From Lama guanicoe (lineage: Eukaryota): a stretch of DNA of 64,000 nt. A program made the translations under genes and the position numbers. Shown here piece by piece: positions 8,307 to 37,146 of this stretch. The stretch covers positions 2,050,127 through 2,114,126 of the forward strand of contig MU053594.1 in NCBI GenBank assembly GCA_013239625.1. Direction: 5' to 3'. Position 1 is the stretch's first letter. Each line of letters starts with the position of its first letter. The notes beneath the pieces were generated by a model, which saw nothing but the letters and a program-made list of their open reading frames with translations, was not told where the DNA came from and made no database searches.

Positions 8307-8308
<2 letters not shown>

Positions 8309-9144: not shown

Positions 9145-9218
9145 ATTTGAAGACTGCACTGTTTTGTGTGTTCATGTTATTTTAATGTACATTAAAACCT
9201 TTACAAATTCTTTTATAG

Positions 9219-10273: not shown

Positions 10274-10438
<165 letters not shown>

Positions 10439-11131: not shown

Positions 11132-11509
<378 letters not shown>

Positions 11510-14256
11510 TGACTCTGACAGAAAGGTACTGTAGAAACACATTTCACCTCGCCACCGTCTGAAAGCATAGCCATAGAAGAAATGTCATTCATTTCTTCTT
11601 GTGTATAACATAGACTTAGTGATACTTAATGTCTCTGTGACTTAAGGAATATTAAATTGAGAGGAAAAGACACTGTGGTTTCAAGATAAGTCTGTTTTGA
11701 TTTTTGCTCAGGGCAGCTTCCCTGTTTGCCTCTATTCTGAGCAAAATGTCTCTGGTCACCACTTTTCGTGCATCCTGGTTAAAGGGAGTTGAGGACTCTC
11801 CACATAGAAAAGGACTGTTGAGGTTTGTAGTGCTAGTGTTTTGGCCCAAGTCCAAGTCCACATTATCACTTTCTATGTTACTGTTTTGAGATTCATGGTT
11901 AGTTTTACCGATACCATATTAATTAAAATTTTCATTGCTGGGTTGTATAATGACATCCTTTTTTTTCTTTTTTAGTAGGTGCCCTGGACAGTTCTAAATC
12001 TGATATGCCCTCACCATGTGGGTAGCACTTATTACAGCGTATAAACTGTTAAAATCTAGTTGGGGAGATAAGACAGCTGTGATCTTTTAGGGCAGGGACT
12101 GTGTTCAGTCTTGCTTCCAGGCACCTAGCATCTGTTGATTGTTGAATAAATGAATACCTGAATATTTTTTGAGAAAGCTCAAAATATGTCAGGTGACAGC
12201 TCACTTTACTGTAGTTTGTTTCCCCGCTTTCACCCCCACTTCAGTTCCTTTCAGATCATAGCATATGAGATTTATTTTTTCTTTTCTTGGATTACTGAAT
12301 TTGTATTGATAATTTTGGGACGCTTAGTTTATGAAATGGGTCTTGTGCATGTCTGTGGCATCATATGTTTTATAAAGTTTCAAGTGTCCCTTTCTTTAGA
12401 GTGGATGCCAAAGATATCAGCATACAGGTTATCCCCACTGTCTGGCAGTAGCGTGTTCCTAAGAAAGTTTTTGTGAGCCGAAATGGTGGAAAGCGAAGAA
12501 GCAATTGCCTTATGACACATCTTACTAACAGATACACAGAATAAATGGAGACAAAGCGCAGATGCTCACAGTTCAGAGCCGTGGCGGCCTGATGCTGAGA
12601 TGCTGGGTTAGTTCCCGGGAAAGGAGCTTGATGGTGCCGCTGGCTGCCGGGGTGTGTGCTGCCCCTGTAACGGCTCCTTGCAGAGCAAATGCTGAACGTG
12701 ATTTTCGCCTTTTTTTTTTTCGGTAAAATGAAAATCCCCATCGGATTTCTTTTGATTAGCAAAAACGGGTACTAATGTAGTTCTTTTGTAAAAGTGAAGT
12801 GGTGTAAAGTGGAACTAAAACTGGAAAAGTGGAGGGTACCTGTGTAGCTGATGGGGTCAGGTGAAGTCCTCTTGTCACTGTCTTTCCTCTGTCACTCCCA
12901 AGTACTGTGACTGTCACAGATCACCTCTCCAGAGTGGAAAGGAGCAGTAGTTAGCTGGTTTGCTAAAGCCTGAAATAACTGTTCAGAAGTTGGGGTGAAT
13001 TTTAGTAGCATTGCTTTTTTCTTCTTCTCTCAGACCCGGGAAGTCTGCAGAGGGGGGGGAGCTGTCGGGGGGAGCGTGGAAACAGGCGTCTGGTGACTTT
13101 GACTGCCTCCTGCTTGTGTAGCGGGGTGACATGTATCAATCGGGAACATTTTGTTACAGAACTTCGACTTAGTATTATGTATTTTATCCTTTTTTGAAAA
13201 ATCTGTAAAGACTTTTATATCAGGTAGTCCAGTTATAATATAACATTTTTTCAGGATGATGTGTGGCCTGGTTTACGGACCATGGTGTGGTGAGTAAATG
13301 TCAGGTTAAACCGTAAGAACCAGGAAATAAAAGTTAATTAAGACTCAGGAAAAAAAATCTGTGACCTGAAATGAAAAAGAAATCTTGGAGAGCAGACGTG
13401 GTAATCTCAGTGTATGCCACAGCCTGTTCATAATCTATTATTATAGAGCCATTTTATCTTATTAAATCACTATTTTCAAAGCACTGTAACTTTTTATTAC
13501 ATCTCTTTGTTTAAAATATATAATCACTGATCAGAAACTTCTTAAGATCCAAAGAAGCTAAAGGTTGAACACATAGACCTCAGGAGGGAGGTGCTGGAGG
13601 GTCTGTATAAATCAGCTCTCGGAGCTTGTCCCCAGTTGGCTGGTCCCTAGCCTGTGCTGGAGTGGCCACCGTTGACAGGGAGAGCAGAGGTGGGAGAACC
13701 AGGATGGCCCCCCCCCGTGGCTGTGCCGGGACCACGCCACCTGCCTTGTTCTCGCTCTGCTTTCTCCCATGCCTCCCAGAGTCCTCTCTTTAATTGGAGG
13801 GACCTGTATTTCTTGATGTCAGACTCTTTATCCTTAAGGATTTATTACGATATTAACCAAAAAAGGGAAAAATTGGAGAATTATTAATATTATTGACTGG
13901 GATTTTCCTGGTAGTTCGTTTTTACAGATAGTCTGGAGCTTGCTAGCCAGACTGCAGCTGCGTGCTTTCCGCTCTTCTGCAGCACGGTGCCTGGCTCCCG
14001 GCCACCCTGTCCTCTCCCGCTTAGCAACGCCTGGGCCATGTCACTTATGCTTTCCTTTATGGTTTCTGTCCAATAAAATAGATTTACAGTTTGTAAATCA
14101 AATCCCATGGTATCCCTTTTCAGCTGGTTCATGAATTCAGCTCATTTGGAAATAAGTGTTATTTTAGCTTTCAAGTCACTTTGGTGTAATGTAAATAGGC
14201 CATCTTGTTTTCTAAACTTTGGAGACATGTATTAATGGAATCTTCTGTATCCACAG

Positions 14257-14317
14257 GGTGTGGAATTCTTTGATGAAAAGCTGAATTCCTTATGTATGGC
14301 CTGGCTTGTGGACCACG
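14257..14317 (+). CDS. PPP2R1B: PPP2R1B exon 11 (GVEFFDEKLNSLCMAWLVDH)
   Basis: cacag|GGTGTG ... CACG|gtaagt; 61 nt. Confidence 0.95.
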
Positions 14318-17300
14318 GTAAGTAGCTAACTTAAAAACAGATTATTAGTAGCAGGCCCATGGTTTGGCGTATATCCCATTTTGTTCATTTATTTCCTTTT
14401 CAGAGAGGAGTCGTAATCTGACCATATTTTGCCTTACCAGTGTAGGGGTGAAGATGGGCTTCGATTAAAGTCCAGTTAACTTGCTCTGAGTGCAAGTTTG
14501 ACATTTCTGTTTTCTTCTGTCTTAAATTTTATTTTCTCCATTAAACAATCTCTTTGCCCTATTTCTCACTCATCGTATTACGTTATTTTCAGACTGTCTC
14601 TTTTATACATGTACTCTTTCTTATCTCAAGGTCTTCTGCTTGACCAGTCATCTTTGTATCTTCAGCCGCTGTAGACAGGGTTGGACAGGGATTGGAAGCA
14701 GATGAAAGGCCTAGGGGAAGAAATGGCTGCTTGGCCTCTGTGAGGTGGCGTAGAGAAGGAGGTATGCATGGCGCGGTAAAGGAGTCTAGGGGTGGAAGTC
14801 GTCACTGTGACCTGGGACAGAGAGGGCCCTGATTTCTGGTTTTGGTGAGAGGTGTATGTTACTTCCTGCACCCTGGCTGCCGCCGCCATGATGCTGAGCG
14901 AGGGCGAGCCAAGAACTCAGGGCAGGGTCAGCTGGGACGGCATTTAGAAAATAAGGTTTTTAATATTTTATCTTCTCTTTGCATTTATTGCATAATTCAT
15001 TTCAGTAATCACAGGATGCTTTATTTCCAGTGCTACGTACTGTGTTGCAAATAAAAGCTGGAACTACTGCTCATCAAAACATACAAGGCAATTGATGTTT
15101 CATATAAAGCCACTTTATATATTAACTTGTTAGCCGCTTACTTTTTGACGGGGCCTCAGGTCTGTTTACTTCCTCTTGTCTGCCAGGCAGTGATGGGTGG
15201 GAGGGGCTCCTTCTGTACAGATGAGGTCTAATGCCAGCCCCGTGTCCAGCCTGGCAGCTTCAGTGTGCCTGAGATCTGTTTACATGAGGGCCCTGAGGAC
15301 TTAGAATGACCTGTGAGCTTTGGCTCCATGTTTTGGTGGATATGATAGGTACCCTGTTTCAGTTTCACAGCATCTTATGTGTACTTTGTGTACTGAGCGT
15401 GTGTCTGTGGGGTCTTCTGGGTAGCTGTTTGGGAGGAGTGGGGATGTTGTATTTGCTTGTACGTGTAGTGGTTTTGTTCGGGGCATATTTGGATCATATG
15501 GGAAATCATACGAAGGAGGGGAGGAAAAAAATGTGCGACTCTCCTAAAGGCATATATATGTAGATAATTTCACTGTTTCCAGACTAGACTATGAAGACTT
15601 TATGTCCATTTTTCTTGTCCTCCAAAATTACTTTCTAAGAGGCTTAATTTTTTTTTCTTTTTAAGTGAAACTCTGGTTTGGCAAATCATAGGAAAGAAAT
15701 TCTTCTCTTTTTAGATGTAAAGCGTTTATATTATTTCTGATAAGTATTTAATGTTAGTGAGTCCCAGCAGATTGTTCTGTAATTTCTTTGAAAGCTTGTA
15801 TTCTGGATGTTTTTTTGAGGAACTCTCAAAGTCCTAATGTTCCACCAAGAATTAAATTCCTGACACCTTTTCTATGTAGGATTGCTCTGTAGGATTGTGT
15901 CAATGCAAGTTAATTAATACTTCCTCTTTTCTCTGATTTTTTTCTTCCAATTTGGGAGCAGCAGAGACCTTTGGGTCGCTTTCTGTAGCAGCATACCAAA
16001 GTGGGCATTGCAGACATTCTCCACACCAATGAAATGTCGGCTCTGAAATTGCTCTGTACTTAATCACACGGATTATTTTGTTTGTTTTTGCATTTTAGAT
16101 AACTGTTATGTAGGACCAATGATCAATTAAATTTTTGGAAACTTTTTTTTTTTTCTGATTATTAAACTACTGAAAGAATACTGTGAAAAATCCAGAGAAG
16201 TGTAAGGAAGGAAGTATCACTGTACTGCTGCTCCCATGGTTGAGTGGATAGTGTTGATTAGAGGGAGGAATTCAGGAGGGGGATTTATTTTTTATAGGAG
16301 AAAGGAAAAAGTTAGCATATAGAGTGTGTTAGGAACTTTGCAAGGCAGCCAGACCTTGAGGGGAGAGGGGAAAAGGGGGAGGGGGAGGGAGAGAGGCAAA
16401 ACAAGAAGAGAAGAGAGGCAGAATGGTTTGCATTCTTTTTGCAGCAAAATTGAGGGGAGCCAAGAACATAGTAGGCATCTGGCCAAGTAGAGTTGAGTGC
16501 AGTTAAGGTCTGGGTCAAGGCCGAGTGCATGTGCTCTGTCTCCGGTTACTCTGGCAGTGAGATCCCTTCCTATGGTAATGGCATTAGGAGGAGAAAAATC
16601 TCCAGCAAATTAAAAAAACAATGAAGGGAGAAGACACAGATGCTCTAGATGCCCTTGAGGGGTAGAGGTGTTGGGGGTTGGGGGGCTGTGCCCGAGACAG
16701 AGGCTGTGAATGAAGGTGGGGAACTTGTATTATGGGTCAGGCTGACTTGAGCTTGGTCCTTAGAGGGTGCTTCTGGGTGTTCCTGGCAGGTTGCTTCTCC
16801 CACAGACTTTGGTCCCGTTGCGTGTTGGTGATAAAGGATGTAGTTCCTTGGCTGTGCTCTCTTGCCTGTTGTCATCAGTGGCGCTGCCCGAAAGGATTTC
16901 ACGGACCCGGAAGAGCTGGATATTTCCTGTCTGGAAGCCTCGTGTAAATTATCCAGGATCAGGGCTGTGGCTTGGCTATTGTTAAGCCATTCTTGCCCAT
17001 CCTGCCACCAGGAAGGCCGGGCTTACCTGGAGAGAGAAGTAGAATAAGGAATCGGTCCCCACCACTCTAGGTCTGTTACTGAAGACCGGATTTTGGACTT
17101 ACTAGACATGTGAAATGAAGCAGCGCCACACCTGTCTTTGTTAAGTGCTGTTCGCAGAAACTAGTTGTGAGAAGGTAGTTGCCCTTTACTTTACTGTCTA
17201 GATTTATGATGTTGATAAATGATCTTGTAGGGAGTTGTTAGGTATTAAAGCAGACATTGGACATGTTGTCTCAACAGAAACATTTTTAAGGGAAAAAGAG

Positions 17301-18403
17301 GCAAGTCAATCTCAAGTTTCTGTTTGCTGTTGTGTCGGTGACGACGGTGGCCTCTAAATGACCTCCTCGCTGTCATTCTCTCCTCAGCTGTTCTTGCTGC
17401 TGCTGGAATCATCTTGCTAAAATACCACATTGGTCATAGGGTCACATCTTTGCTTTAAAAACCCATCATTGGTTTTCTAACAGAGTCTAAATTTAGCTTC
17501 CATGATGCTCTGTGTTCTCAGTCCACCCGAACTGTTCAACCTTACAGTCTCTCAGTCTGTGCCCTTGGTAAATATTTTTGCCCTTTCTAGGAATTCTTCC
17601 CTTCTCTGTACTTACACAAATCCTCCCTAATCTCTAAGGCCCCGTGCAAGGCCTCTGTTTCTCGAAGCCTTCCCAGACCTCCCCGTTCTCTCTGCTCTAA
17701 AGCCCTGCATCCCTCACAGTCTTTGCTACACAGCTTCGTGCCTTGCTGTAGTCGGTCTCAGGCCTCGTGACTCCTTGGAGGGCAGCAGCTTTCACTTCTT
17801 TGCTGGAGGGTGTGACCTTCGGGGGAAGTTATCTTACGCATTCTTTCTGAAACACGTAGCACCCAGTTGCCACTCACGTTTGTTCATTAATAATGCTTGG
17901 AGTGAGCTTGTCAGCCATTTCTTGGTCATCTCGTTTCATGCAGGCGGCTCTGTCCCTCTTTAATAATCCTGGGACAAAACACCACCACCTGCGACTTCGC
18001 TAATAAGCTTTTGTTTTGTGCCCCTTACCCTCTGCCAAACCCTAACTGAAATAAATCTCTCTCCCTCCCACACCTACAGCCTCTACTACAGCTACTCTCT
18101 GCACACCCACATTTTCTTACTTGGACTATTACATTAGATTCTGTATTAGTTTTCCTGTCTTCAGTCTTACCGTTTTGTTTTTGATCTCTTTTTCTTGAAC
18201 ATACTGTCCCATTTTGCAGCTGTAATAAGACCGGATCAGTAAGTTAGGCGTCATAACTGATCGTGTTTGCTATTGCTGTATGACTGAATGTGGAGTGTTG
18301 ACAGAGTTTTATTTTTGGTCCTTCTTTGGATGATGTAAGTAAAAGTAAACTAGGTTATGCTTATGGTGTGAGCAGCACAGTGTGTCCTTCGCCTCTTCTG
18401 CAG

Positions 18404-18558
18404 TGTATGCCATCCGGGAAGCCGCCACCAACAACCTCATGAAGCTGGTTCAGAAGTTTGGAATAGAGTGGGCCCAAAATACCATCGTCCCCAAAGTGTT
18501 AGTAATGGCAAATGATCCTAATTACTTGCACAGAATGACCACTTTATTCTGCATTAAT
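18404..18558 (+). CDS. PPP2R1B: PPP2R1B exon 12 ([20 protein letters not shown]...[13 protein letters not shown])
   Basis: tgcag|TGTAT ... AAT|gtaagt; 155 nt. Confidence 0.96.
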
Positions 18559-18908
18559 GTAAGTATGACATAGCTAGTAGTGCAAAGCACAAATGTTAAA
18601 GCAGTTATTCAATCCTGTGCTTCTGAATTCTGAATACATTGTCTTTTGTTTGGAATATGTTTCTTATACTGATGAATTTGGACAGTTAGGAGATCAGAGA
18701 AAAATGTCAATTTTTCAGTTCCTGTTAAAATCTATAGGAGTCAGATCAGTTACTTATGAATTCTGATCTAATTCTGGGACTCTTTGCTGCCTTCTATCCT
18801 TCATTCAGAGGCTCAAACTAGAAACAGTTTCCTGTTGGCCAGTTACTTGCTTATTAAATATTAACTTGTCTCTTTAGATTTTGGGATATTTAAAAAAGTA
18901 AAAGTGGT

Positions 18909-19029
18909 GGGGGAGGGTACAGCTTAGCGGTAGAGCATGTGCATAGCATGTACTCAACCCCCAGTACCTCCATTTAAAAAAATTACAAAAGAAAAAATAA
19001 ACCTAATTACCTCTCCTCCTAAAAAAAAA
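18909..19029 (+). mobile_element. tRNA-derived SINE, camelid vic-1-like, internally deleted
   Basis: GGGGGAGGGTACAGCTTAGCGGTAGAGC (A-box) ... CCCCAGTACCTCC-A-rich-AAACCTAATTACCTC-polyA; homologous to the other copies in the window. Confidence 0.8.
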
Positions 19030-19031
19030 GT

Positions 19032-19167
19032 ATTTTATTTTATTTTACTTTTTTTTTTTAAGCAGTCTTTTTCTTTTAATTTATTAATTTTTTTTTTAAA
19101 CAGAGGTACTGGAGATTGAACCGAGGACTTAGTGCACACGCTCTGCCCCTGAGCCGTGCCCTCCCCT
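19032..19167 (-). mobile_element. tRNA-derived SINE, vic-1-like, diverged
   Basis: polyT then GAGGTACTGGAGATTGAACC ... CTGAGCCGTGCCCTCCCC, the reverse of the same consensus. Confidence 0.75.
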
Positions 19168-19211
19168 CCAAGGAAAAGTGTTTCAGAAGTGCCACCTTGT
19201 TCTTTTTCTAG

Positions 19212-19354
19212 GTGTTGTCTGAAGCCTGCGGTCAGGAAATAACCACTAAGCAGATGTTGCCTATTGTATTGAAAATGGCCGGAGACCAAGTAGCAAATGT
19301 CCGTTTCAACGTGGCCAAATCTTTACAGAAAATCGGACCAATTCTAGATACTGA
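19212..19354 (+). CDS. PPP2R1B: PPP2R1B exon 13 ([47 protein letters not shown])
   Basis: tctag|GTGTTG ... ACTGA|gtaaga; 143 nt. Confidence 0.95.
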
Positions 19355-19498
19355 GTAAGATTTCTGTATTATTATTATTTTAAAATAGATTAAAATTTTC
19401 CCCTTAGAGTAGGGAGTAATAGCTGTAATTAAAATCAGTAATTTTTCACTTCACCTGATGTGTGAAGAAAATAATAAAGTAATTTAACAACTGATTTT

Positions 19499-19627
19499 TT
19501 TGTTTTGTTTTGGTGGCGGGGAGGTAATTAGGCTTATTTATTTTTAGAGGAAGTACTGGGGCTTGAACCCAGAACCTCATGCATGCTAGGCATGCGCTCT
19601 ACCACTTGAGCTATGATACCCTCCTCC
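19499..19627 (-). mobile_element. tRNA-derived SINE, vic-1-like, full length with TSD
   Basis: A and B boxes on minus strand; TSD ttaacaactgatttt (19484-19498) / ttaacaactaatttt (19628-19642). Confidence 0.88.
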
Positions 19628-19843
19628 TTAACAACTAATTTTGAGGGCGTCCACTCAGACTTTTGCATTTAAGCTCTGTATATGTGTAGATCATTGCCCA
19701 AAGCTAATTCTGCTAACTTATTTTGTGCTTGTTAAGTGTATATTATAGGTGTTTTAAAATATTTTAAACTTTAAAAATTACCATACAGCATGCATTTCTC
19801 TGGCCAAGGCCTGCCTTTCACAGACCATACCGTTGGATTTTAG

Positions 19844-19935
19844 TGCTTTGCAGGAGGAAGTTAAGCCAGTGCTCCAGAAGTTAGGCCAAGATGAAGACAT
19901 GGATGTCAAGTACTTTGCACAGGAAGCTATGAGTG
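19844..19935 (+). CDS. PPP2R1B: PPP2R1B exon 14 ([31 protein letters not shown])
   Basis: tttag|TGCTTTG ... AGTG|gtatgt; 92 nt. Confidence 0.95.
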
Positions 19936-20344: not shown

Positions 20345-20361
20345 TGCTTGCGTTGGCATAA
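20345..20361 (+). CDS. PPP2R1B: PPP2R1B exon 15 coding part, short isoform (VLALA*), followed by 3' UTR
   Basis: ttccag|TG CTT GCG TTG GCA TAA TGA; phase matches exon 14. Confidence 0.93.
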
Positions 20362-21600
20362 TGAGGAACAGGAGGGAAAAGACTTTACTAAATTCTTACC
20401 ACAGATTTCTAGTCCATGTGTTCTTAAACTGGGTGGAGAGAAAAATGGAAAACCTTCAAGACCTCATCCGAGCAAATGGCAGCAACTTACAAGAAATCAA
20501 ATTTCAGTGACTTGATTCTTTCTAAAGATGAAGTGGGATTGTTTTATACTTGTCTTCCTTGTTGGGATAATTATATTTAAGCCATTCTTATTGTTTGTGA
20601 CCCATTCCTGACACTTGGTGCAGTCATTTCTTGATTGTCTCCTAGTGATTTATCCAGCACCATCTGGTCTCCTGCGTCTTCATTGTTTTACCAAGCCTGG
20701 ATGGGTTTGGACCCAGACGCGGAATGGAGTGATTCTCTTGATGTTTACATATATCTGTGTCTCCGTCTTCCAAAGTTAAGTGTACATGGTTTAGAATAAC
20801 TTAATTTATAAACACTCTATTTGGGAGACACATTGAGATTTAACTATAGTGAAAGCCATATTTTCCTGGGTAATAGTGGTCCGTGTCAGTGTTGCACATG
20901 AAAGGGGAATGTGGAAACTCAGGGTTCATCTGTTGGTTGTTTTGGTGTTTATTTGCTCGATTCTGATTGTAATCATGTCATTCAGAAACCTGGAATGCAG
21001 ATGCATCTTGCTGCTGGTGCCCGATGTTGAAGCCTAACTGAATTTCAACAGCTCCCCACTGTGACCACCTTCAAAAATGCTTCCCTCTCTTCTGTGCTCT
21101 AAGAAACTGAAAATGTAGTGCCTTCTAACAAGCAGTGGTTCTCCTGTTTGATTGTAAGATCGCAATTGTTATTTCAAATGAGCAGAAGAACCACTGGTCT
21201 ATACAACACTGTGAGGACCTCTGCTCTCTACCTGGTTCTGCTTCCAGCTGTGTGAACATCTGGTCCTTGCTGCATGTACAGTAGTGGCTTTCCAAACTGA
21301 AGTTTCTTTAGTTATTTTTTGATATGGGTGATGCTGGAATCTTACCATTTGAAATGTTTCTTTCTCTACTTTTACAGTAAAACCTCATTAATTTCTCATG
21401 GAATTGAAGATAAAGAGTTAAGCTGAAGGGTTTGCTGAAGCAAATTAATGTAAAGAAGCCTGTTGTGTCTCAACTACTTAACAGTCTTAATGCTCTTTAA
21501 AAAAGCACCCTTTTACCATTTGGTATGCGGGTTACTAATCACTCTATTCAGTTATATTAAAATACCTTCCGTGAGGATCTTTATGAAGCCACACTTTTTG

Positions 21601-21740
21601 TTTTAATTTTATTTTTTGTTGAGGGGGGAGGTAATTAGGTTTATTTATTTGTTTATTTTTTAGAGGAGGTACTGGGGATCGAACCCAGGACCTCACGCAT
21701 GCTGAGTATGTGCTTTACCACTTGAGCTATACCCTCCCCC
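21601..21740 (-). mobile_element. tRNA-derived SINE, vic-1-like, in putative PPP2R1B 3' UTR
   Basis: GGAGGTAATTAGGTTT...GAGGTACTGGGGATCGAACCCAGGACCTC...CTTGAGCTATACCCTCCCC; TSD-like ccacacttttt / ccacatttttt. Confidence 0.88.
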
Positions 21741-24330: not shown

Positions 24331-24452
24331 TGGTGGTCCAGAGGCTGAGGAAGCTAGACTTGCCTGTGAAGGACTGTGACGAGCCCAGCGCCCCTGGGGC
24401 TGACAAGAACCACTTCCTGAGACCCAGAGGGCCTGGAGAGGACGCGGGGAAG
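24331..24452 (+). CDS. PPP2R1B: PPP2R1B alternative penultimate exon, long isoform (VVVQRLRKLDLPVKDCDEPSAPGADKNHFLRPRGPGEDAGK)
   Basis: gtctctag|TG ... AAG|gtaagc; 122 nt; phase-compatible with exon 14. Resembles the recalled human long-isoform segment VVAQRLRKLEFPVKDSGEPSVPRADKNHFPRP. Confidence 0.85.
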
Positions 24453-27400
24453 GTAAGCGCCACACACTCCTGGCCTGAGTCCCCCACCCCGGCTGAGGTG
24501 TGGGCAGAGGGCAGCCTGGTGGCCTGGTGCCCCAGCAGGCCAGGCGGAGAAGCCAGATCCTTACCTCTTTCCCAAGAGGACAGTCAGGTTTTAGGGCCAA
24601 GAGGGTATGCTTTTAAAGCCCGTTGTCCTGTTTCTTGTCTTTGTTCTAGGAGTGTTGTCCGAGGGGTGGGGTGGGCTTGCCAGCGCTCTGGCACTGTGAC
24701 CGCAGGTCTCTCCCCGCCCCCCATGCAGGGGATGGGGCGGTATGGTGAAGGGTTGCTCATTGAAACAGGCTGTTCCCACCTACCTCACAGAATACACACG
24801 GTTCTTACCTGCCACAGCTCCTCTCAGGTAGTCACTTCCATTCAAGGGAAAAACCATTTCTGTCAACTTCACTGTGTAATAGTCTGAATGTTTTCCAAGC
24901 CCCACCTGAGGCCACTCTGGAGGAGGTGTGCCAGGGTTCAATTTCAGCCACGTTGGTGCCGGCCACTGCCCGGGGACTGTTCGTTAGGAGGGTGATTTAT
25001 GACTGACAGATACGTTCAGAAAAGCAGCCCAGAGGGTCCCGGCTGCCTTGTGCTGATGTCAGGCTGCATTGAGTTTATCTGGAAGATGATGGCAGCCTCC
25101 CACCCACTCCCGTGGGTCTGCTTGTGACAATTCTAACATCAAAAAGTTGGACTTCTAAATCTGCATGGCTTTTCCTTCATTTTTTTCTGAACTGAGGCCA
25201 TGAGAACCTTTTCCTGTTGTCCAGGCCCTGAGCTGCCGCCTTTCATCTTGGAATGTCCTCCCTTCCTGCCCGGCTGCACACGGTTCTCCCAGGGCCTGGG
25301 CTGCCATGCGCGTCAGGCTCGGGCAGCTCCGGGCTGTCCCTGCCCTGCGGGGGGGAAGTGCGGCCCAGCCTTGGCGCCCCGGGAGCTGCCGGAGGCGCTC
25401 AGACCTTGGCCTTAGGGAAGACACTGTGGCCCAGCCAGCAGGAGTAATTAGTTATACATTTTTAGGACTAAACCACAGACTTCCTTGTGAAGAAAGGCGT
25501 CGTGTTTCCCTGCAAACTTAGGATCAAACAGCCATGCCACACACTTTGCCTGTGATCTGAGTGTGGTAGAGAGGCAGCCTCTCCACGGGACACCTGCTCA
25601 AATCTGTAGGTGGCCCACGATGGCCACACGCTGGGGAACAGTATTAGCTGCCAGGCCTTGAGCCTTGGTAACTGCAGGCACCTTGTCAGGCACTTGGCAA
25701 AATCTCACTTAATCCTTGCAACAGCCCTGTGTGGTAGGTGCTGGTGGCTCTGCTTTTCAGGTGGCCAAGAACCTCCCCCGAACCCTGTCGTGTCTACCTG
25801 GGGGTCTTTTCCAGCACCGGAGGCCCCTGAGGCTGCAGATCATTTAACCCAGAAAAATCCCCTGCCCCGTGACTCAGGGAGCCTTCCCTGCATTCGTTTC
25901 ACTTAAGGAAAATGACTCGAGGGGGAGATGGAAAGGGAATTGGCTGTTGCCAGGCAGAGCCCTGCATGTCAGGGGCCAGCAGCCAAGTGAGTGATCCAGG
26001 AAGTCATCCACTTGCAAACCAGAAATTGTTCTTAACCCCTCACTCACTGTCTGTGGTGCATAGTAAATCTGCCCATCTGCCCGTCCTGGGTCAGAGTGGA
26101 CGCTACCTGCTGGGAGCCCTGGGAACCGCCTCTTGCCACTGGCCTCTGGGTCCTGCAGGAGCCATTCAACATCCCAGGGCTCGGGCCTACCACTTGGTCC
26201 AAGAGAGAATGGCCCCAAGGTTGTGGTGAGGGCCAGTTTCTTTTGGTGAAGGGCACCTGCTTGGTTCCTCCGGGACTGGCCTTTGGTGTTTGCGGAGCAG
26301 TCTGTGCTCTGGATGTCACCTGTGTCCCCGTGCAGGGCCTGCGGGGGAGCCTCCTGTGCCCGCAGACCCTGGGTCAGCTCAGCCGCTCCTCGCTGGCGGG
26401 GCAGACGGGCGGTCTTCCCCCGCTGGTCGGGCGGGACTGCCCTCCCCATGTTGTCCGGGGTTGTTCTCTGACCACAGAGCTGCCGTCCGGCCTCTGTCAG
26501 GCTAGGGTTAACAGAGGATTTGTTTATTGAATCACAAAGTAGCTGTCACATGATTTTAATCAAAACACCATTTCCCTGACAACAGTGATGTCAGTCTTGT
26601 TATTGCAGGAAGGAGCAGCTGTGAGGGGCGGCCAGTCTCCATGCCGAGCCCAGGTTGAGAGACTGGAATCAAGTGAAGCATCATACATACTGGCTGCAGG
26701 CTCCGTCGCACCGAACGTACCCTCCTCTTCCTCTTCTCTGTCCTGACAGTCTGTCCTGCACAGCACTGGCCAGAGCCTGGCCCCTGCGCCCCGGGTCTCT
26801 GCTGAGATCCCACCTTCTGCACCCCATGCTCCTTCTACCCTTGTTTTGACTACTGGTTTTCTCAGTTTTCCTTATTCGCCCCAAACTTTGGACTCCTAGG
26901 ATCTCTGGCCTCTGCCTTCTGGCTTCTGTCTTTCCTCCAGGGTCTAAACCAGCACTTGCTGGCGATCCAGGCAGTTCCATCTAGCCAGAGCTGGGGCCGA
27001 TCTCGGCTCCGAAACCTCGGCTCCCCCCGGAGCCAGGGTTCTGGGGGAGGAGGGGCTGCTTGTCTTATCTTTGTCCCTGTGAGAGCAGGCTAGCGGGGCT
27101 GAGGGTCTCCAGGACAAATCTAAGGAGCTTGGCTGTGGATGCTGAAGGGTAAGAGCTCCTTAAGGGCTGACCTCAGGGCTGAAGGATTAGCTCTCTGGGA
27201 TCCAGAAAGACTGGAGAAAGCCTGAGTCCAGTCCAGCTGAGGGGAGGTCAGCAGCAGACTGCTCCCAGCCAGGTGGAGCAGCATCCTCAGGCTCTGCCTC
27301 TGGGCACCTTCCCCACCATGGGGACGGAGCAGCTGTCTCTGCAGAGGAAGACTCCTGGCCCTCCAGCCCTTCACCCTGGAGCTTGGCCTAAAAGTTGGAG

Positions 27401-29162
27401 ATGAATGAAAAAGGTCCCCTAAGTGGGACGTGGATTCTCATGATTGTTCTCTTATCTGTGGTACCCATGGCTGGTGCTGCCCAGAACTCATCACTGAAAA
27501 TGAAGAAATCCCTGGCAAAATTCTTGGTTCTGAACCTGAAGCAGGTGCTCAGAATAGGGCAGCCCCCCTGAAATCTGTGAAGAGATTTCATAGGCGCCAA
27601 AGTTTTCTGGGGAGTCTCCTGGGGACTCTTGTTAGAGGGCAGGGCTAGGCCAGGCTGCATTCGTAAAAGGCTCACAGTGAAGCCTTAGTTAAGTCAGCTA
27701 GTCTAACAAGTTACCACTGGGGATAATGAGCCTTTGCAGTGATTTGCCCAGGGTGGTGGCAGGGCTGGGAGTAGTGCCAGGGGCCGAGGACTCGGCCAGA
27801 GGTTCCCTGCTGCCTCCAGGCTGTCCCTGGCAGAGAAGGGTCGGCTCCACCCTGCCCAGAGGACCTTTCTGGCCTGGGTGGCTGCTCCCGGGGGAGTGGG
27901 CATGGGGAGCAGGGCTCCAGACTTGCTTCTGGCCAAGCCCTCCTTGCCCAGCCCTTTTGTCTCTGGGGCCTCTAACTGCCTGCTTGCCCTTTGGCCCTCT
28001 CTTTGCTGGCACAGGAATCTTGCTAAACATTTGGGCTTCTTTAGTGACCAGAGGGCAGTTCCTGTGGGCCCAGACGGAAGAGTCCCTGCATGCTTCTAGG
28101 AAAGGCCTTGGGGGATTTGCTTCAGGTCGCGTCCCACTCCCTAACTGTGCGGGTGGTCCTGGCCTGGTCAATGGATTTACGAGTCAGGGTTCTGAGGCCC
28201 CTTTTGGCATCTCAGGCCCATTATTCCTTCCTCTGGGGAGTGAGGAGACTGAGTCAGAAGCTCTCAGATCTGCCCGATGGGCAGAGCCACTCACTTTTCC
28301 CTTTGAGAGGCCAGATCCCCAGTGCCTCTTTCTTCAGGGCCCAGACGTTCTGAGCTGTCTGCACAGCCTGCTCTTAGGGGCTCAGCTGAAGGGGGCGTCT
28401 GCTGCCCCTGGTGCAGTGTCTCCCTCCCTGCATCTGGGCTCCTTGCTTTGTGGCTCAGCCCTGCACCTGCTTCGCCAGGGCTTCAGACCAGCTCTCAGTC
28501 AGTGTGCCTAGGAAGATCCCCTAGAAATGTATACAAAGAGAGGTATCCACGCTCCCTCGGGGTATTTGCAGCTATCAGTCCAGAGGAATTCAGCTGCATT
28601 GGTGGGTCAGGACATCTGTAGCAGGAAGGCTCCTTAGTTGAATGGCTGGAGGCACACAGCAAGCTGCCGACTGCCTGATCTGGCTTTCAGGTTTGGCCTC
28701 AGTGATTGTAGTCATGGCTTCATGCCTGGGTGGGAGCAAGTATGCCAGTGACAGCTGGTGTCTGAGATGAGGGTCCAGTTCCTTCACTTCAGTCAAGACC
28801 CACATCTGTCTCCCAAGGGACACTGCTAAGGCTGAGCCATGCGCAGTGTTCCATCCCAGCAGGGCTGCTCAGCCTTGTCGTTTCTTTGAAGTGACATCAT
28901 TGGCTGGGGCCCAAATGAGAAGGGCAGAGCAGCTGTAGCCTGTGCAGGTGACATTTATTTTGTCACTGTGGGGCACCCAGGATTTAGTGCTCACAGCCCA
29001 GAACTTCCTCCCACGGTGCCCTGGGCCTGTGGGTGGAGCAGAGGGCTCCCTCCTTACCTGGATGCACCCAGGGAGGGATGGGAACACTCAACCGGGAGAG
29101 CCCTACAACAACTGTGACTGGAGAACGTAAGGGGTTGCAGATGGAGAACCTAATGCTCTAAA

Positions 29163-29340
29163 TCAGGGGTTAGAAGCCCCTCTAACCGCATAAATGGGCC
29201 TTAGGGGGTGCTGGGAACCAACCCCTCCCCCTGAAATTACCCGTCCAAAGTTGTATGTGTATGTGTTTCCTTGGAAGAGGATCCAAAGCTTTTATCAGCA
29301 TGTCAGAGGGATCTGTGCAACCCCAATTTAAGAACTAGTT
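29163..29340. mobile_element. hAT-Charlie relic (MER103-like)
   Basis: caggggtt start and agaggatccaaagcttttatcagcat..agagggatctgtg..ttaagaacta end; family from recall. Confidence 0.45.
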
Positions 29341-30552
29341 GGGTAGAAAGATGCAGATGGCTGAGAACAGAGCCTTGGGCAGGGCCCTGACTTGTGGTGA
29401 TGGAGGTGGGCCCCGGTGAGAGCCACTGCAGACGCGGCATCGCTTTGGAAGTGTGGGTGCTGTTGGCAATTCTAGTTCCCAGCGCCGCCGGGCGGAGGCC
29501 CCAGGGCTAGAGCTCAGGTCGCCCTTGCCCCATTCTGCTCCTCCACCCTGTGCCAGGCCTATGGCTCACGAAGGGCACCGAACTGAAGCATGTTCTGGAG
29601 ATCGTGAAGGTCAAGGGCTTGACTGGCTGCTAAAGTTCTGGCCAGTCTCAGCTGGCAGGTCTGTTATTTTTGCCTGTACCCTGGACACTGGGGTTGTTTT
29701 TGGCAATACAATATAAAAATGATGGAGAAATTTGGTGGGAAAGGGGAAAGTTTGCAAAACATCATTAGTGAAATTGAGGGCCTTCCTTTAAAAAAAAAAA
29801 AAAAAGCAATTGAAACAGCTTTACTGAATTCTCGGGTAGCCGAGCAGAGATAGTAGCCGTCCTGGGGCAGGACTGAGCGCCCGTAGTTGGTTCTGGGGCA
29901 GCAGGACAAGTCGACGGGGAAGGCTCTGCTCTCTTCTTGCCCTTGGCTGTGCCTTCCAGGCCTTCCACCCCCGCCCGCAGCCAGCAGATGGTCCCAGTTT
30001 GGGAACTCAGTTATATAGCATGGGCTCAACTGGAATGGTTTGAGTGAAACCAAATCTTCGTTCAACTTGCTGCCAGAAAGTAGGATTTAATGCTGCCCTT
30101 TCACTCAGGGTCTGGCACTAAAACAAGTCCTGAAGGTATGAGCGTGACCCCAAATGCCTCAGGAAACGGCTTCTCCGGCACCCGAGGGCACCGGGCTGGT
30201 GCCTTTCCCCGGGTGGGGCTAGATTGTGCGCATGTGCGCCGTGAAGCCTTTTGCAGGCCCCAGAGAGGAGGTGCCATCGTGAATAAGTGCCAGTGTCTTG
30301 ATGGCCGCCCCCATTCACACCCCTTGCCCTGCAGCTGTGGTCAGGGAGCCCCAGGTGCCCGCCTGCCCTCCTCCTCCTGCTGCTGCGGAGGCCCTTCCTT
30401 GCCCGACTCCCCCTGTAACCCCGGGGCGCCCGGCCACGTGCTCGCAGCCCGGGCCCTGCCCGTGTGCAAGCCGCGGTCAGCGCTGCTTCCGTCAGCGATC
30501 TGCAGCTCCCGTGTGCTCGGGCGGTTTCAGAGCAAGGTATTATTTACCCTGC

Positions 30553-30560
30553 TGACGTCA
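30553..30560. promoter_or_regulatory. Full palindromic CRE motif TGACGTCA
   Basis: Exact motif beside a CpG-rich patch (30230-30530); function not shown. Confidence 0.35.
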
Positions 30561-30730
30561 ATGAGAACATATTATCCACTGTCCTTTTCTGGAGCCTGAA
30601 ATGAGCCCCAGAGCTCAGGGAACACAGCCACCTTCCATAGTTTCAAAATTCCACCCGAGGCCCGACGAGGGAGAGGCCCCATCCGCCGCCTGACATTCAC
30701 ATCACCCAGGCTTTTAGAAAACAAGTTGTT

Positions 30731-30736
30731 TTTATT
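30731..30736 (-). terminator. Candidate distal SIK2 poly(A) signal
   Basis: plus-strand tttatt = AATAAA on minus; UGUA upstream, GU-rich sequence downstream. Confidence 0.65.
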
Positions 30737-33700
30737 TTAGTTCAAGAGGGTTGGAAATGTAAAAACAGTACATTTTCCTTGCAGAAAATTACCCCATTTA
30801 AATTACCGTTTGATACAAAGATCATTTTATTAAACTGCATTTTAGGCAATTTTCTAACATTGAGTGACAGGTTACATTTTGATTTTTTCACATTGGAGCT
30901 ATTATGATTTGCACTCAAAATACCAAAGCTATTGAACTCACCAGTTTTTCTTGGTAATTGAAAAAAAAAAGCACACAGGAAAAATAACTACAATTAGATT
31001 AACTTTATCAAAAGTAACTCTTTCACAAACCAGATATCCAGCAGAGACCACCCTCCTCCCTTCAGAAATAAGCAAATAATCTTGCCCTTTCTACAAAGTG
31101 CAAATATTTCTGTATCACTTTTGTTTCCTAAACTGTAGTCCCTGAAGAGAAGCAAACCTCCTTTTCTGGTTCTTTTCCCTTCAGAGATTTCGGTGGAAGC
31201 AGGTTTCTTTCACCATCAGTAGTGGGAAGGCATCACCACATGAATTTCCTTGATTGAGCAAATCATGAACAGATAGGCATCACACAGCCAGTGGCAAGTC
31301 CCAGTTATCTGCATTTGCTAATGTAACGTTCTCCCAATCTGGGGTCACATTTTTTTCCGGGATGTAATTTTGTACTTCTATTTTTAAAGCTCCTCCCTAT
31401 CCACCCACTTTGCCTCTGAAAAGACGAAAGTATTCGATCAAAGGATGTTATTTTTTTAACCCTATGAGCGTCTGGTAACACTTCAGCTTGATGGGCCTTA
31501 ATGGTAAAGAAACTTTATGCCCCCCCTCAGGACTGGGCTGAGTTCCTGATAATTCTCTGAGCAGCCCCCTTTCTTGAGGTTGAGTCGCTGGCCTGCAGCG
31601 GCGGCCAAAGCCATTGGCAGTTAAGGAAGGGTGTGTCCCGCCATCATAGACTTCTGTGGGAAATTACGATATTGTGTAACTTGGAGAAACTACACATCTT
31701 TGATGTGAACCTAAGCTGCTGTGGTAAACTGGACACTGGAAAGATCTGTGGGGTCTGTCTCTCCCTTAGCCTTGTTCATGCGGGGCCACCGGGACAACTA
31801 CAGTTGTCACCTGGAGGGCACCTCTTACCCCGAAGCCGGGTAGCTGTCAACTGGGAATAAGGTTTCGGGGACAGTGTCACATCCAGTCAGTGCTTGGCCA
31901 AGATGGGGGCTTTGTTTATACAGCTGTTTGCTCATGAAAAGGGTCAACTGCTACTGAAGAGGGAGGAGCGCGGAGTAAGAAGCCAGGAAACCCCAGAGCC
32001 TGTCCGGCTCGGCCACGCGTGAGCCCTGTGTGCGTGGAGAAGTCACGTGACCTTCCTGGAGCTTGGGTTTCCTTGGCTGTGGAACATGAGGACTCTCTGC
32101 TCAGCTGACTTCATGGTATTGTTGGGAGGATTAGAAGAGATTACTTGTGAAAGTTCTTGGAAAATTAATGCACAAAGAGAAGCTACTGCTCCTTTTGGAC
32201 AGACAAGCTGATTATCTGTGCAGGAACCACCAAACCTACCACTGGCTGTTTCTCCATCTACGCACCAGCAGGTGCCCAGTTCTGCCAAGTGTGTTGAAAA
32301 TTGCGCAGATGAGATGTAGACATAAGATGGTCTAACTGGGGCGGCTGTGAGTCTCCTGGAGTCAGCCAGGGCAACTTACTGGGGAATAACAGTAAAACAA
32401 AGGTGTGAGGGGGCCATGTGAGGCCAGGGATACAGGCCAGGGAGGACCATACTGCTGAACTGGTCAGAAGGGATCCATCAATTTGTTAAAATTGGATTTG
32501 TCCAGTTTAGAGAGGCAGGTGGTGTTACTCTCGTCTGTCACACATCACTCAGGATGAGTTCTGTAAACATTTCCTGAAGCAACAAAGTGATCAAAGACCC
32601 CTGCCTCTCCGTGACTCCAACTTACTACCCGTCCCCCAGTTTTCACTTTGATGTCTCAGCACAGAGGGACCGAGCAGCTCGGGTGGCTTCCGAGGCGGCG
32701 GTAGAGGCAGCCCAGTTAGGGGTAGGGACGCGGCCAAGGTCAGCCCCGGCACGGGGACTCCGCAGCTGTTTCCTGGGCCCCGTGCTGTCCAGTGACCCTA
32801 CTTATTGTCTCCAAGGAGAAGGAATGTGAAAGATTATCCGGAGTGTGGTTTTCCGTAAGCCAACAGGGAGCTTAGGTGAAGCTGCTCACAGGTCTTCACA
32901 TGTAGTCTAGAGCTGGAAATTCTGACCTCAACACGGAACCCAGTATTTAAGTACCTGGGGCTTGCCTGGAGATGGGAGGACCCTGCAAAGGAAACTGTGC
33001 ATTTCATCACGTCCACGTGTGAACTGCCCACCCCTGCCGGGCTGCTCTGACTGCCATATCCCTGGACCCCCGGCCCACTAGAGCGGAGGCCTCTGCTCTC
33101 CACCTGCCTTCAGCTCCTGGCTGGCCACCCGTCACTCTCCAGCGGAGAATACACCCTCTTCCTGACTCTTAACAATTAGGTAGAATTCTTTGCTCTGAGA
33201 ATCCTCGCTTTCGGGTCCTAATGACAGTGTGGGGACAGAGAGGGAGAGGCCAGTGCCACCATGAGTCCCTTCTGCAGGAGCCTTGAGTCGGCTTGGAGGG
33301 TGACATTCCCACAGGGTGGTCTCCTCACTCCCCGGCAAGGCACAGGGCTCCCCACTGCTCTGAGCCGAGGACTGCCTTCAGCCTGGACCCCAGGTTCTCC
33401 TGTCAGTCCTACTTAACTGACTCAGGACACAGCTCACAAGTGCAGAAGTTCTTTATTTCTGGGGAAGAAAGGGACTCTGATTTTCTCTTTCCTTGGAGGC
33501 AAAGTTGGTGCAGAAAAGGAGTCCTTTAGTCCCATCCCCTAGCCCTCCTCTGGGGGCCCCAGATGTTTCCCATCAGTGGAGACTGGAGGGTGGCTGGTGT
33601 GGAGAACCTTCCGCCGCCCTGTCTGTTCCCAAGGCAGCAAGAGGGCAGTGCTGGCCTGGGGGGGACAGAGATGGTGGCGGGGCATCAGGGGGTGTTCAGT

Positions 33701-33773
33701 GCAGCTCCCCAGGAGTTTTCAGATGGAACATCCACCCTCTCTGCTGAGCTAACGGGCTCTATTTGCCTTACAG

Positions 33774-33866
33774 GGACCAGCATATCAGCTGTGTGTAAAT
33801 CCTAGAGAGACACTTGCCCACCCGGAAATTGTAGGACTAGTGCATTTTTCTCAAAGCAGAGACTAA
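33774..33866 (+). CDS. PPP2R1B: PPP2R1B alternative last exon, long isoform (GPAYQLCVNPRETLAHPEIVGLVHFSQSRD*)
   Basis: ccttacag|GGA ... GAC TAA; 93 nt, phase 0. Resembles the recalled human C-terminus GPVYQLRGDTRDTLAQLGIAELVHFSQSTD. Total with exon 1 would be 667 aa. AATAAA follows at 33904 and 34001. Confidence 0.8.
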   Translation, partial: GPAYQLCVNPRETLAHPEIVGLVHFSQSRD

Positions 33867-33903
33867 TATCCCTGGATTTAAAAAAAAAAAAGCACAAACA
33901 AAA

Positions 33904-34006
33904 AATAAAGTACCACACATATTGTACTTTTTGCTGAATGAAATTTTTACCTCTTGTTCATCTCACTGAAGTCTCTTCAGAGGAGCCTGGTTTACAAGAC
34001 AATAAA
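33904..34006 (+). terminator. Candidate poly(A) signals of long PPP2R1B isoform (AATAAA at 33904-33909 and 34001-34006)
   Basis: Two canonical hexamers 37 and 134 nt after the stop codon. Confidence 0.55.
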
Positions 34007-36572
34007 GCTAATGGTTATTATACAGTAGTGTTCACGCTGCTAATGTGAAACAGACTGGAAAGAAAGTCATGACCTCCAAGTACCTCTTAGAAAAAGAAGA
34101 GTACTAAGCGTTCTTAGTGTTACTTTAGTATTAGTGAAGAGAGGAGACACGCACAGATCACCAGTGAGGGGACAGAGCAACGGGGCTGATCAGGCAGGGC
34201 TGGCAAAATGCCTCACTGACCGACAGAACCAGTCCCCTCTCACCAGCCTAGCTTTCAGCAAATACAGATCGTTACGGAATTTATTGATTTCTGCTTGAAA
34301 TAAATGAGAAAAGCAAACAGGTACTTACAACACAGTCCAGCAGGACGGGCCATGCTCTCCCCGGGGGCTTCCGCCCTGCTGTCGGTCAGTTCCCGACAGG
34401 CCTGGCCACCGCCGCGCGCTCCCCGGTGTCTACCTCTGGGGCCTTCAGCCTCCCAACAGCCTCTCCGCTGCCTCTCGTCTGTCAGCCCAGCTGACCTGCC
34501 GCAGCTCCCAGGTGTCCTGGGCTAAGCGGCTCATGGCCTTGTCTCATGGGGCAGGTGTGTCTGCCCATCTGTAAGTGCCACTCTTGCGACTCTGAAATGA
34601 GCCGCCCCCGTTTTCGATCTGGAAGGCATTTTAATTTCATAAATATTACAGCGCTTCTGTAGACTATTTTGGGAAAACATCCTTCAGTTTAAACAAATCA
34701 AGCCCTGCTTTATAGCTCTAAGGTTAGAGGTCTTAATGAGAGGATCTCTTAAATGAAATGATGTCTATTTCACGGAATCATCAATCTTAAGCACGAGGAG
34801 GATTAAACAATCCGTAGAAGGAACCCACTTCCTTCCTGGATTTTTCACTGCATGTTGTCAAGTCACAAAACACTCATCCTCCGCACCACTGTCGCTCACA
34901 CCCAGAGCCCGACCCCAAGCGCAGTGCCTCTGCGGAGCGTCCTGGCGCCAAGAGGGGCCAGAACAGAGCTCCTCAGACCTTCCACGCTTCTCCTCATCTG
35001 CCTGGACACGTACTACAAAGAGGAAAGGCAACTTAAAGGTGTTCTAGATGCAGCATCAGTGTAGTCTCTCTCTTCTTTGTGCTTTAAGGAAGATGCTTTG
35101 TGCTTAATGCGTTCATCTGATAGGACACACCATTCTAAAGGACAGAAACGGTCCTCTTTGTAAATAATACTGAATTTGTAACACTTGGATGTTACTGTCC
35201 GAATGACGGAATACTCATTGCCTCTAGGCCGACAGTTCACTAGCTGTAGCATCTATTTTTCACTTACTCTGACGACTGAGCTGTAAGGGTCTCAGTTTTA
35301 CTGGTCATATCACGTGCTTGGCAGATGACCTGCTTTAAATGGTTAACACATCTGTGGTCTTTTGAATATTGCTGTTAATACTTGAACATTTCATTACAAG
35401 TCAAAACCTAAGGAAATTAAGGATGTGATTCCCACATGGTGGAAAACAAACTCTGAAGTGACTTTGGATTTAGCATTGACATAAGTGGGAAACTTGGTTT
35501 CTACAGAAAAGAAATAATTAAAGCATGATCTGGGGGGAAAAGGCACAGCACTAACCACTTCACATGGATGATAGAAGTTCGTTTCTCTTGTCCTTAAAAT
35601 TCCTAAGCCCTATATGAAACTGTTCAAATATACAAAGCTCGATAAACGACTAGCCACATCTAGTGTAAAGTCCAAGTAGTTATTACATTTTAAAAGAGAC
35701 GCCAGGTCCTCTAAAGACCAACTGCCCCAAACTAGAAGTCTCCACAGAAGATTGCAGGAAAAGCCCGTCTTCGCTGGTCCAGGGCTGCGCTCCTGATGGT
35801 TTCTCGAGTCTCCTGCCCTTGGTCTCCACTGCAGTCCGTCCCTTGGTTCCACAGGTGACATCTCTGGGGCCCTGAGGACACACTGTAACCCAGGGCACCT
35901 GCTGAAGAGGTGTGTCACCTGTTCTCAGATGGAGGCGACCGCCAGTCTCAGGGGTCAGTACCAGCTGTTCCTTAGTGGCCCCTGAAACAAGGCTCACGCT
36001 CTACCCCTTTGCAATGGTCTTGGGGACAACTTGTATCAGCAGCTTAGAACTTATGACTCAGTGGCAAAGTACAACTTTCCTTTATTTCCTGTGCATCAAC
36101 TTTAATACGTATTCTTGATTTGCCTTTAAGCAACATGCTGTTCTTGGCTTCAGTGAAAAATATTATATTGCCTTTTTTTTTTTTGCCTATATGTAATGGC
36201 ACACTTTCTTTTTCTTGCTTTCACCAAGATTTCCCTCGATAATAAATTGGTGGAGTTTTGCATAAAACCTAGGGCTGGATGTCTTCTTACAGAAACATTT
36301 GCTGGTGCCTCTGACGAGCGCCTGCTCCACCTGACCTAAGGGCACGAGCTTCAGCCTTCAACTGTTCCAGCACGGGCCACGGAAACCGTGGTGGGACAGA
36401 GCCGGGGGGAGCCTCATCCCCCCGGCCGGGCCCTCCAATTCCGGCTGGGCGACTTGATTTTTACCCCACTGGGGAGAGGGCAGGAAAATAAGCGTTACAT
36501 TGAAAAGGCTGGAATAAAAACAGAAATACACACGCGGTCTTCACTTGACCCGCTTCACTTCCTGCGCCGAGA

Positions 36573-37146
36573 TTAATTTACCAGGACGTAGCCGCTGTGC
36601 TGTGGGTCCACGGCCTCCAGCATTTCACAATCGAAGAGTCCGGGGAACTCCGGGAGGGCTAGAGGGCCGCAGCTGGAGGGCGCTTCCTGCAGTCCTGAGC
36701 TCTGGGGGCAGTCCGGCGCTGCGAGGCCGCTCTGCGGGTCTCCATCCATGGGGTACGAGCAGGGCGTGGGGTAGTCCGACGCCGGGGAGGCGGCGCCCGG
36801 CAGCTCGCAAGTCTGATAGGAGAACCGCAGGGGCGCGGGGGCTGCTCCCCACTGCGGGGGCGGCGGCGGCGGCGGCGGCGGCGGCGGGATCTCCTGGTAC
36901 TGACCGAGGAAGGGGCTGTACTGCATCCCTCCGGCAGCGGGCTCCAGGCCAGCGGGCTCCAGCACGGGGCTCAGGGGCTGCGTCCGGCTGAACGGCGCGG
37001 GCGGCTGGGCCGGCGGGGGCGGCTCCCGGCCGGGGAGGGGCCGCTGCTGGCCGGGCTGTGGGTACGAGCTCTCTGCTATCTGCATCTGATTAAAGTATGC
37101 CTGCAGCTGAGACTGTTTCTGCAGGAGGAGCCGCTTCTGCTGGAGT
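36573..37146 (-). CDS. SIK2: SIK2 last exon coding part ([25 protein letters not shown]...[11 protein letters not shown])
   Basis: cttag|ACTCCAG ... TAA at 36575-36573; 574 nt; includes ORF 36573..37085. Confidence 0.95.
36861..36887 (-). repeat. (CCG)9 coding trinucleotide repeat within an 11-proline run of SIK2
   Basis: plus-strand (cgg)9. Confidence 0.95.

Follow-up and report, generated by a model that had tools for sequence, protein, structure and literature searches.

A convergent gene pair in the guanaco window

A 64,000-nucleotide (nt) stretch of guanaco (Lama guanicoe) DNA, positions 2,050,127 to 2,114,126 of contig MU053594.1 and hereafter the window, was analysed around the last coding exon of a long isoform of PPP2R1B, the gene for the PP2A scaffold A-beta. 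The window is mammalian DNA with PPP2R1B coding exons on the plus strand and a SIK-family kinase gene, SIK2, on the minus strand; the 3′ ends of these two coding genes face each other in a convergent (tail-to-tail) arrangement, and long-isoform PPP2R1B is predicted to terminate within the opposite-strand SIK2 tail. This layout is common to placental mammals, and the isoform and the convergent overlap are already annotated and of a common kind. The locus is probably the orthologue of the annotated long PPP2R1B splice form, with predicted junctions in guanaco; the crossing of the transcribed 3′ ends, annotated in mouse, is suggested in guanaco by polyadenylation (polyA) hexamers.

The plus-strand gene was recognized as PPP2R1B from the match of its exons to named camel and goat A-beta proteins. 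Its shared coding exons (1-19935, plus strand; gene start outside the window) were placed at high identity by tblastn of the camel P0001 and goat P0006 models, with the last shared donor at 19935, and one core exon is identical to 15 models at 42-46 of its 46 residues. The short, canonical form ends in a terminal exon whose coding start (20345-20364, plus strand) gives five residues and then two stops, an ending shared with human P0050; candidate polyA hexamers of this form lie at 21556, 22213 and 22815 on the same strand.

The long isoform is predicted to continue into extension exon A (24331-24452, plus strand), which has 122 nt, 40 whole codons, phase 1 in, phase 0 out and a strong donor, and whose phases suit both the last shared exon before it and terminal coding exon C (33774-33866, plus strand) after it. 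Exon C holds 30 residues and a TAA, with no internal stop, and is preceded by a pyrimidine tract and CAG. When the 745 AGs in 24500-34100 are ordered by a simple home-made splice score, the exon C acceptor comes 14th, and among the 16 plus-strand acceptors that score at least 5 within 24500-36500 it alone is followed by an open frame of at least 25 residues and an AATAAA no more than 150 nt past the stop. The proximal AATAAA (33904-33909, plus strand) has a T-rich tract (50% T) downstream, and a second lies at 34001-34006 (plus strand). A preliminary description of this DNA had claimed an intact exon at 33774-33866 with acceptor and AATAAA signals, situated between the minus-strand kinase stop (36573) and a distal AATAAA (30731-30736); the open translation, the splice score and the hexamers at 33904 and 34001 bear this out, as does its position. 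No Pfam family was found for exon A or exon C. A run of 12 A (33880-33891, plus strand) just past the exon C stop is an internal-priming hazard for 3′-end mapping with oligo-dT.

Between exons A and C, within the inferred SIK2 3′ untranslated region (UTR), lies a middle cassette exon B (32660-32738, plus strand), which in several other mammals contributes 27 residues in frame. Because it measures 79 nt in guanaco (or 74 nt if the next AG is used, or 99 nt, including a stop, if an upstream AG is), in-frame inclusion would not be possible there. Some database models read cassette B in another frame, from the upstream acceptor. As judged from aligned sequences, exon A is the well-kept part of the extension, cassette B is labile and exon C is kept to a moderate degree.

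The SIK2 3′ end and its polyA signals

The minus-strand gene belongs to the SIK family by PDB match (best SIK3, E = 2.7e-15), and we call it SIK2 because mouse and human show synteny of SIK2 with PPP2R1B. Human ALG9, PPP2R1B and SIK2 are situated together, and we take the human SIK2 3′ UTR to be several kb long and to overlap PPP2R1B. In mouse, Ppp2r1b sits next to Sik2, oriented as in guanaco, according to a supplementary table (PMC8256860).

The coding part of the last SIK2 exon (36573-37145, minus strand; 5′ end approximate) ends in a stop at 36575-36573, with kinase exons upstream. From hexamer positions and an AT-rich end at 30700-31000, the 3′ UTR is predicted to reach a distal polyA site, spanning 30710-36572 (minus strand) or about 5.8 kb. 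Its candidate signals, all on the minus strand, are spread along this length. The most proximal, an ATTAAA and an AATAAA (36106 and 36086; 36081-36106), lie ~490 nt past the stop, and their use would leave no overlap; an ATTAAA at 34630-34635 is also ahead of the overlap, and use of an AATAAA at 34280-34285 would leave a gap of ~230 nt between the mRNA end and the 3′ end of long PPP2R1B. The candidate AATAAA at 33452-33457 is the first whose use takes in the exon C complement, and an additional AATAAA (30826-30831) lies near the distal AATAAA (30731-30736), which has an upstream UGUA. Four hexamers are thus ahead of the overlap, and complementarity to exon C would arise only via 33457, 30831 and 30736. 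The preliminary description left out the proximal minus-strand hexamers at 36106, 36086, 34635, 34285 and 33457, and also the cassette exon at 32660-32738. The overlap sizes, ~3.3 kb for primary transcripts and ~150-250 nt for mature mRNAs, stand as arithmetic and hold only if the SIK2 polyA site is at or beyond 33457.

Two AATAAA hexamers within 25 nt of each other, one on the minus strand (34280-34285) and one on the plus strand (34299-34304), mark a possible two-way termination point just beyond the long PPP2R1B end. The last SIK2 exon contains a triplet repeat (36854-36887, 11.3 copies) that encodes a proline run and may vary in length, and an ESM Atlas search with this exon returned low-complexity look-alikes only, below 0.8. 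Just beyond the distal SIK2 signal, in the long PPP2R1B intron, 30300-30500 is a GC- and CpG-rich patch (71-75% GC, 13 CpG in 100 nt).

An Rfam scan over 20000-64000 found no structured RNA in the overlap and two tRNA-like matches only, both outside it (21664-21736 and 54026-54097, minus strand). These fall inside a dispersed repeat family with further members at about 18888-19032 and 19495-19627 and are most likely tRNA-derived short interspersed nuclear elements, one of them within the short PPP2R1B 3′ UTR region. Fourteen RNA or probably-RNA contig runs (among 24 runs listed) share 0.38-0.40 of the words of 30500-37000, which fits a diverged relative covering the whole UTR or a shorter UTR equally and is evidence for neither. 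A scan of metagenome contigs with the exon C motif for orthologous DNA gave 0 matches, and two loci from a similar scan with the SIK2 tail were dismissed as chance, with no blastn match to the window.

The long-isoform tail across mammals

Searches seeded with the tail led to PPP2R1B models of many placental mammals (10 of 14, 20 of 47 and 19 of 88 candidates, plus cluster members). Species named among the models are human, camel, goat, yak, sifaka, Chinese hamster, guinea pig and elephant seal; models taken as macaque, vervet, mangabey, gorilla, Panthera, Mastomys and elephant are so labelled from incomplete names or from accessions. The long isoform, which the preliminary description had likened to a human form, is real and conserved: human model XP_016873449.1 (P0051) contains both exons A and C and exceeds the matching short model P0050 by 66 residues, in agreement with the 667 residues, against 601, that we take the curated human isoform to have. 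Human and window are identical at 29 of 40 residues in exon A and at 18 of 30 in exon C.

Compared with 10 mammalian species, the window shows identities of 68-88% for exon A and 40-80% for exon C; in the latter it matches Panthera at 24 of 30 residues, sifaka at 23 and yak at 16. Exon C was compared in 15 models chosen because exon C is present; P0054, P0026, same-species duplicates and all models joining exon A elsewhere, both camel models included, lie outside that comparison. Exon C has exactly 30 residues in 12 of the 15; in hamster it carries an in-frame 4-residue deletion, in goat a frame shift near the end, and in guinea pig a read-through past a lost stop codon.

A search with exon A gave 24 representatives at E ≤ 0.001, with identities of 66-87% and nothing distant or transposon-like among them; the 20 of these that were newly examined are apparently the same mammalian exon, mostly with the same exon ends. 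Two region searches gave no match outside PPP2R1B or outside mammals, a weak negative in that non-placental long forms may hide in clusters. The camel models are the closest match to exon A (93%). One of them, KAB1254943 (P0001), appears to contain intron-derived residues at two exon starts (4109-4160 and 19812-19843), and the lack of exon C in it may be a prediction error. A rabbit entry, P0029 (UniRef A0A5F9D2S5, ‘Mannosyltransferase’), combines PF03901, HEAT repeats and exon A, and is apparently a fused ALG9-PPP2R1B model or a read-through.

An AlphaFold2 prediction for a 694-residue orthologue, made from a shallow alignment of 21 sequences, placed a helix at 585-606, followed by predicted local distance difference test (pLDDT) values below 50 over 607-694, where exon C contributes a weak helix (674-684). 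No B56-docking LxxIxE motif was seen by eye in the tail of the aligned models. The tail begins just past HEAT repeats 11-15, which bind the catalytic subunit (PMC12557939, PMC12129040), and it could tune holoenzyme assembly or location. PPP2R1B transcripts are described as peaking in spermatocytes; the knockout is azoospermic, and the gene is needed for male meiosis (PMC12579511).

Overlap and expression in mouse and human

Ensembl coordinates place the end of mouse Ppp2r1b (ENSMUSG00000032058, plus strand) at 50,894,229 and that of Sik2 (ENSMUSG00000037112, minus strand) at 50,892,801, an overlap of 1,429 bp (PMC8256860, Table S2). Both genes are expressed in mouse testis and occupy adjacent rows in a sheet of 3,494 testis J2 double-stranded RNA (dsRNA) peaks, which does not give the peak position; Ppp2r1b had pull-down higher than flow-through in 2 of 8 samples, and Sik2 likewise in 2 of 8 (PMC8256860). 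Each gene name occurs once in that file and is absent from its expression and intersect sheets and from the other supplements searched, in a study that reports enrichment of dsRNA-forming genes in pachytene spermatocytes (PMC8256860). Overlap as such is common, since overlap with a neighbouring gene is recorded for 4,951 of 19,200 human coding genes (about a quarter), with 2,980 of these belonging to convergent or divergent pairs (PMC6746723); one supplement of that study does not name the PPP2R1B/SIK2 pair.

Short 3′ UTRs are reported to be favoured in germ cells (PMC4858225). In its S1 Table, which covers genotype-biased transcripts only and does not name the dominant germ-cell form of Ppp2r1b, a Sik2 isoform with a 687-nt UTR makes up 24% of Sik2 in spermatocytes and 47% in round spermatids of wild-type mice, and three listed Ppp2r1b isoforms with short C termini each account for <0.5% of the gene’s transcripts in wild-type germ cells. 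These mouse germ-cell data fit avoidance weakly better than they fit duplex regulation. The literature search, with most subscription journals out of its reach, found no paper on a regulatory role of the overlap or on the long isoform or its tail; neither the isoform nor the overlap is mentioned in passages of PMC6406801, PMC12129040, PMC12653000, PMC12877115, PMC7794582, PMC6465407 and bioRxiv 2025.07.16.665150. Regulation by the PPP2R1B/SIK2 overlap is unsupported.

Explanations for the layout

We favour, with moderate confidence, the reading that the locus carries an orthologue of the annotated long form that is enriched in germ cells and has a disordered tail, the overlap being tolerated rather than used. 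Splicing would bypass the short terminal exon and link exon A to terminal exon C (with cassette B added in some lineages), swapping the last few residues for a tail of ~70 residues that would lengthen the last HEAT helix and then become disordered. The extra exons would go back to the placental ancestor, with B and C situated in DNA that doubles as the long SIK2 3′ UTR, giving an ordinary tail-to-tail overlap. The long form would be made mainly in male germ cells, in which SIK2 may tend toward proximal polyA sites, and complementary mRNAs would therefore mostly avoid each other. The selected product would be the protein tail beside the HEAT repeats that bind the catalytic subunit, and the overlap would be tolerated because germ-cell SIK2 favours short UTRs. 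Exon anatomy, conservation of the tail across species and the overlap annotated in mouse are the established parts of this explanation.

Several points weigh against it. Testis restriction of the long PPP2R1B is presumed, and the literature search gave no paper stating it. Both camel models are without exon C and have two other residues after exon A, and many other models splice exon A to other sequence. The gorilla-labelled P0054 stops 10 residues into exon C, the elephant seal P0026 reads it in another frame, and exon C of the window has Pro and Gly where most models have Leu and Ala. Intact copies are over-counted by searches seeded with the tail and by annotation that projects human models, and disorder is weakly supported by low pLDDT values when the alignment behind them is shallow, with 21 sequences. 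In pairs without elephant, conservation of cassette B (17-23 of 27 residues) is at least that of exon C (13-22 of 30), and coding constraint on exon C is therefore not clear. Dominance of the long form in germ cells is itself our inference, the dominant isoform being unlisted in the S1 Table of PMC4858225.

Taken as a whole, the protein-level comparison is mixed and does not separate coding from UTR constraint in exon C, the two constraints that the preliminary description had supposed to act together on one stretch. The elephant exon C matches that of Panthera at 26 of 30 residues; neutral simulation at 0.3 substitutions per site gave a mean of 16.8 and a probability of at least 26 shared residues of 0.0004, which rose to 0.078 at 0.15 substitutions per site. 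The figure of 0.3 is the distance that we take to separate elephant and Panthera, and the pace of change in UTR DNA may be slow. Taken as a neutral control, cassette B shares 13 of 27 residues in this same pair against 26 of 30 for exon C, with the elephant cassette apparently locally frame-shifted; we give this contrast little weight as evidence of coding constraint because of that apparent frame shift and because other pairs lack the contrast.

Exon C might alternatively be ancestral and decaying or unused in the guanaco lineage, its frame open by inheritance and partly sheltered by slow 3′ UTR evolution, with the long form as splicing noise. The missing exon C of the camel models, a cassette B already out of frame in guanaco, the altered exon C of the goat, guinea pig, gorilla-labelled and elephant seal models, the 16 of 30 match to yak and the fact that a neutral 90-nt frame is stop-free in a pair 43-48% of the time at 0.3-0.35 substitutions per site (simulated without indels) all point this way. 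However, acceptor, frame, stop position and polyA signal of exon C are all intact, it matches Panthera and sifaka at 24 and 23 of 30 residues, and exon A is strongly kept together with its donor, which requires an acceptor downstream; we regard decay as unlikely. Less likely still is that the long PPP2R1B is real and guanaco SIK2 mRNAs end at or before ~34260, so that mature RNAs never overlap and exon C is merely downstream of SIK2. Two AATAAA (34285, 36086) and two ATTAAA (34635, 36106) on the minus strand would permit this, as would a short-UTR Sik2 isoform like that listed for mouse germ cells (PMC4858225), but mouse Sik2 as annotated runs 1,429 bp beyond the Ppp2r1b end (PMC8256860), and the distal guanaco hexamer has an upstream UGUA and stands at the end of an AT-rich block.

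The preliminary description had gone further and proposed a regulatory sense-antisense pair, which is not supported: overlaps are common, the only dsRNA data found are without enrichment for either gene and SIK2 is able to end ahead of the overlap. In such a functional cis pair, long PPP2R1B and long-UTR SIK2 would control each other and tune kinase against phosphatase, which we think improbable, and the same low expectation applies to the routes it might take, namely polymerase collision, altered polyA choice or a duplex of 150-250 nt feeding ADAR or endogenous small interfering RNA (endo-siRNA) pathways. The annotated mouse overlap and the presence of both genes in the testis J2 list, alongside the enrichment of dsRNA-forming genes in pachytene spermatocytes (PMC8256860), are consistent with it, as are the spermatocyte peak of PPP2R1B (PMC12579511) and a review’s account of SIK2 protein as bound and stabilised by the PP2A subunit B55-gamma (PMC12557939). 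Against these stand pull-down above flow-through in only 2 of 8 samples per gene with neither gene in the expression or intersect sheets (PMC8256860), the frequency of overlaps among human genes (PMC6746723), the four SIK2 polyA hexamers ahead of the overlap and a literature search that found no paper on the PPP2R1B/SIK2 overlap. A more specific proposal, which we hold to be a long shot, is that a meiotic switch to long PPP2R1B would send polymerase ~14 kb further, into the SIK2 3′ UTR, forcing SIK2 to proximal polyA sites or clearing long-UTR SIK2 via a duplex.

Comparison with known systems

The human long isoform (XP_016873449.1) is the closest parallel, with the same two extra exons, order, frame, 30-residue last exon, stop position and gain of 66 residues; it differs in sequence, with 29 of 40 residues identical in exon A and 18 of 30 in exon C, and the guanaco form is known from sequence. 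PP1gamma2, a splice variant of PPP1CC, carries its change at the C terminus. Like long PPP2R1B, if our reading of germ-cell enrichment holds, it is a phosphatase subunit variant linked to male germ cells, but it is a catalytic subunit rather than a scaffold, and its restriction to testis is established (PMC6406801), whereas that of long PPP2R1B is presumed.

Mouse Ppp2r1b and Sik2 are the same genes in the same orientation with a 3′ overlap, annotated at 1,429 bp (PMC8256860) against an overlap of up to ~3.3 kb predicted in guanaco, and cassette B is in frame in rodent models. Human convergent overlaps likewise join opposite-strand coding genes with common 3′ boundaries (PMC6746723), whereas at PPP2R1B/SIK2 coding exons, and not UTR alone, lie inside the partner’s UTR. 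The SLC34A1/PFN3 natural antisense pair (PMC4996343, PMC2673434) also has an alternatively spliced, testis-linked transcript of a coding gene running antisense into its neighbour; endo-siRNAs are reported there and none were found for PPP2R1B/SIK2, and the PPP2R1B extension is coding.

Significance

As a point of annotation, the guanaco locus probably encodes a long PPP2R1B form that is missing from the camel models. As a consequence of the overlap, reads from the SIK2 UTR can be credited to PPP2R1B, and vice versa, when RNA-seq is unstranded or 3′ probes are used. This is of practical concern, since human gene-level association studies bring up both genes together. If proven, a cis link between kinase and phosphatase scaffold would hold more interest, but it is unsupported. 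Were the meiotic extension of polymerase true, a single placental-specific splicing event would both alter the PP2A scaffold of germ cells and reset a PP2A-bound kinase, with coding exons born inside the partner’s UTR. PPP2R1B is essential for male meiosis, and the function of its 66-residue tail, on which the literature search found no study, is of modest interest.

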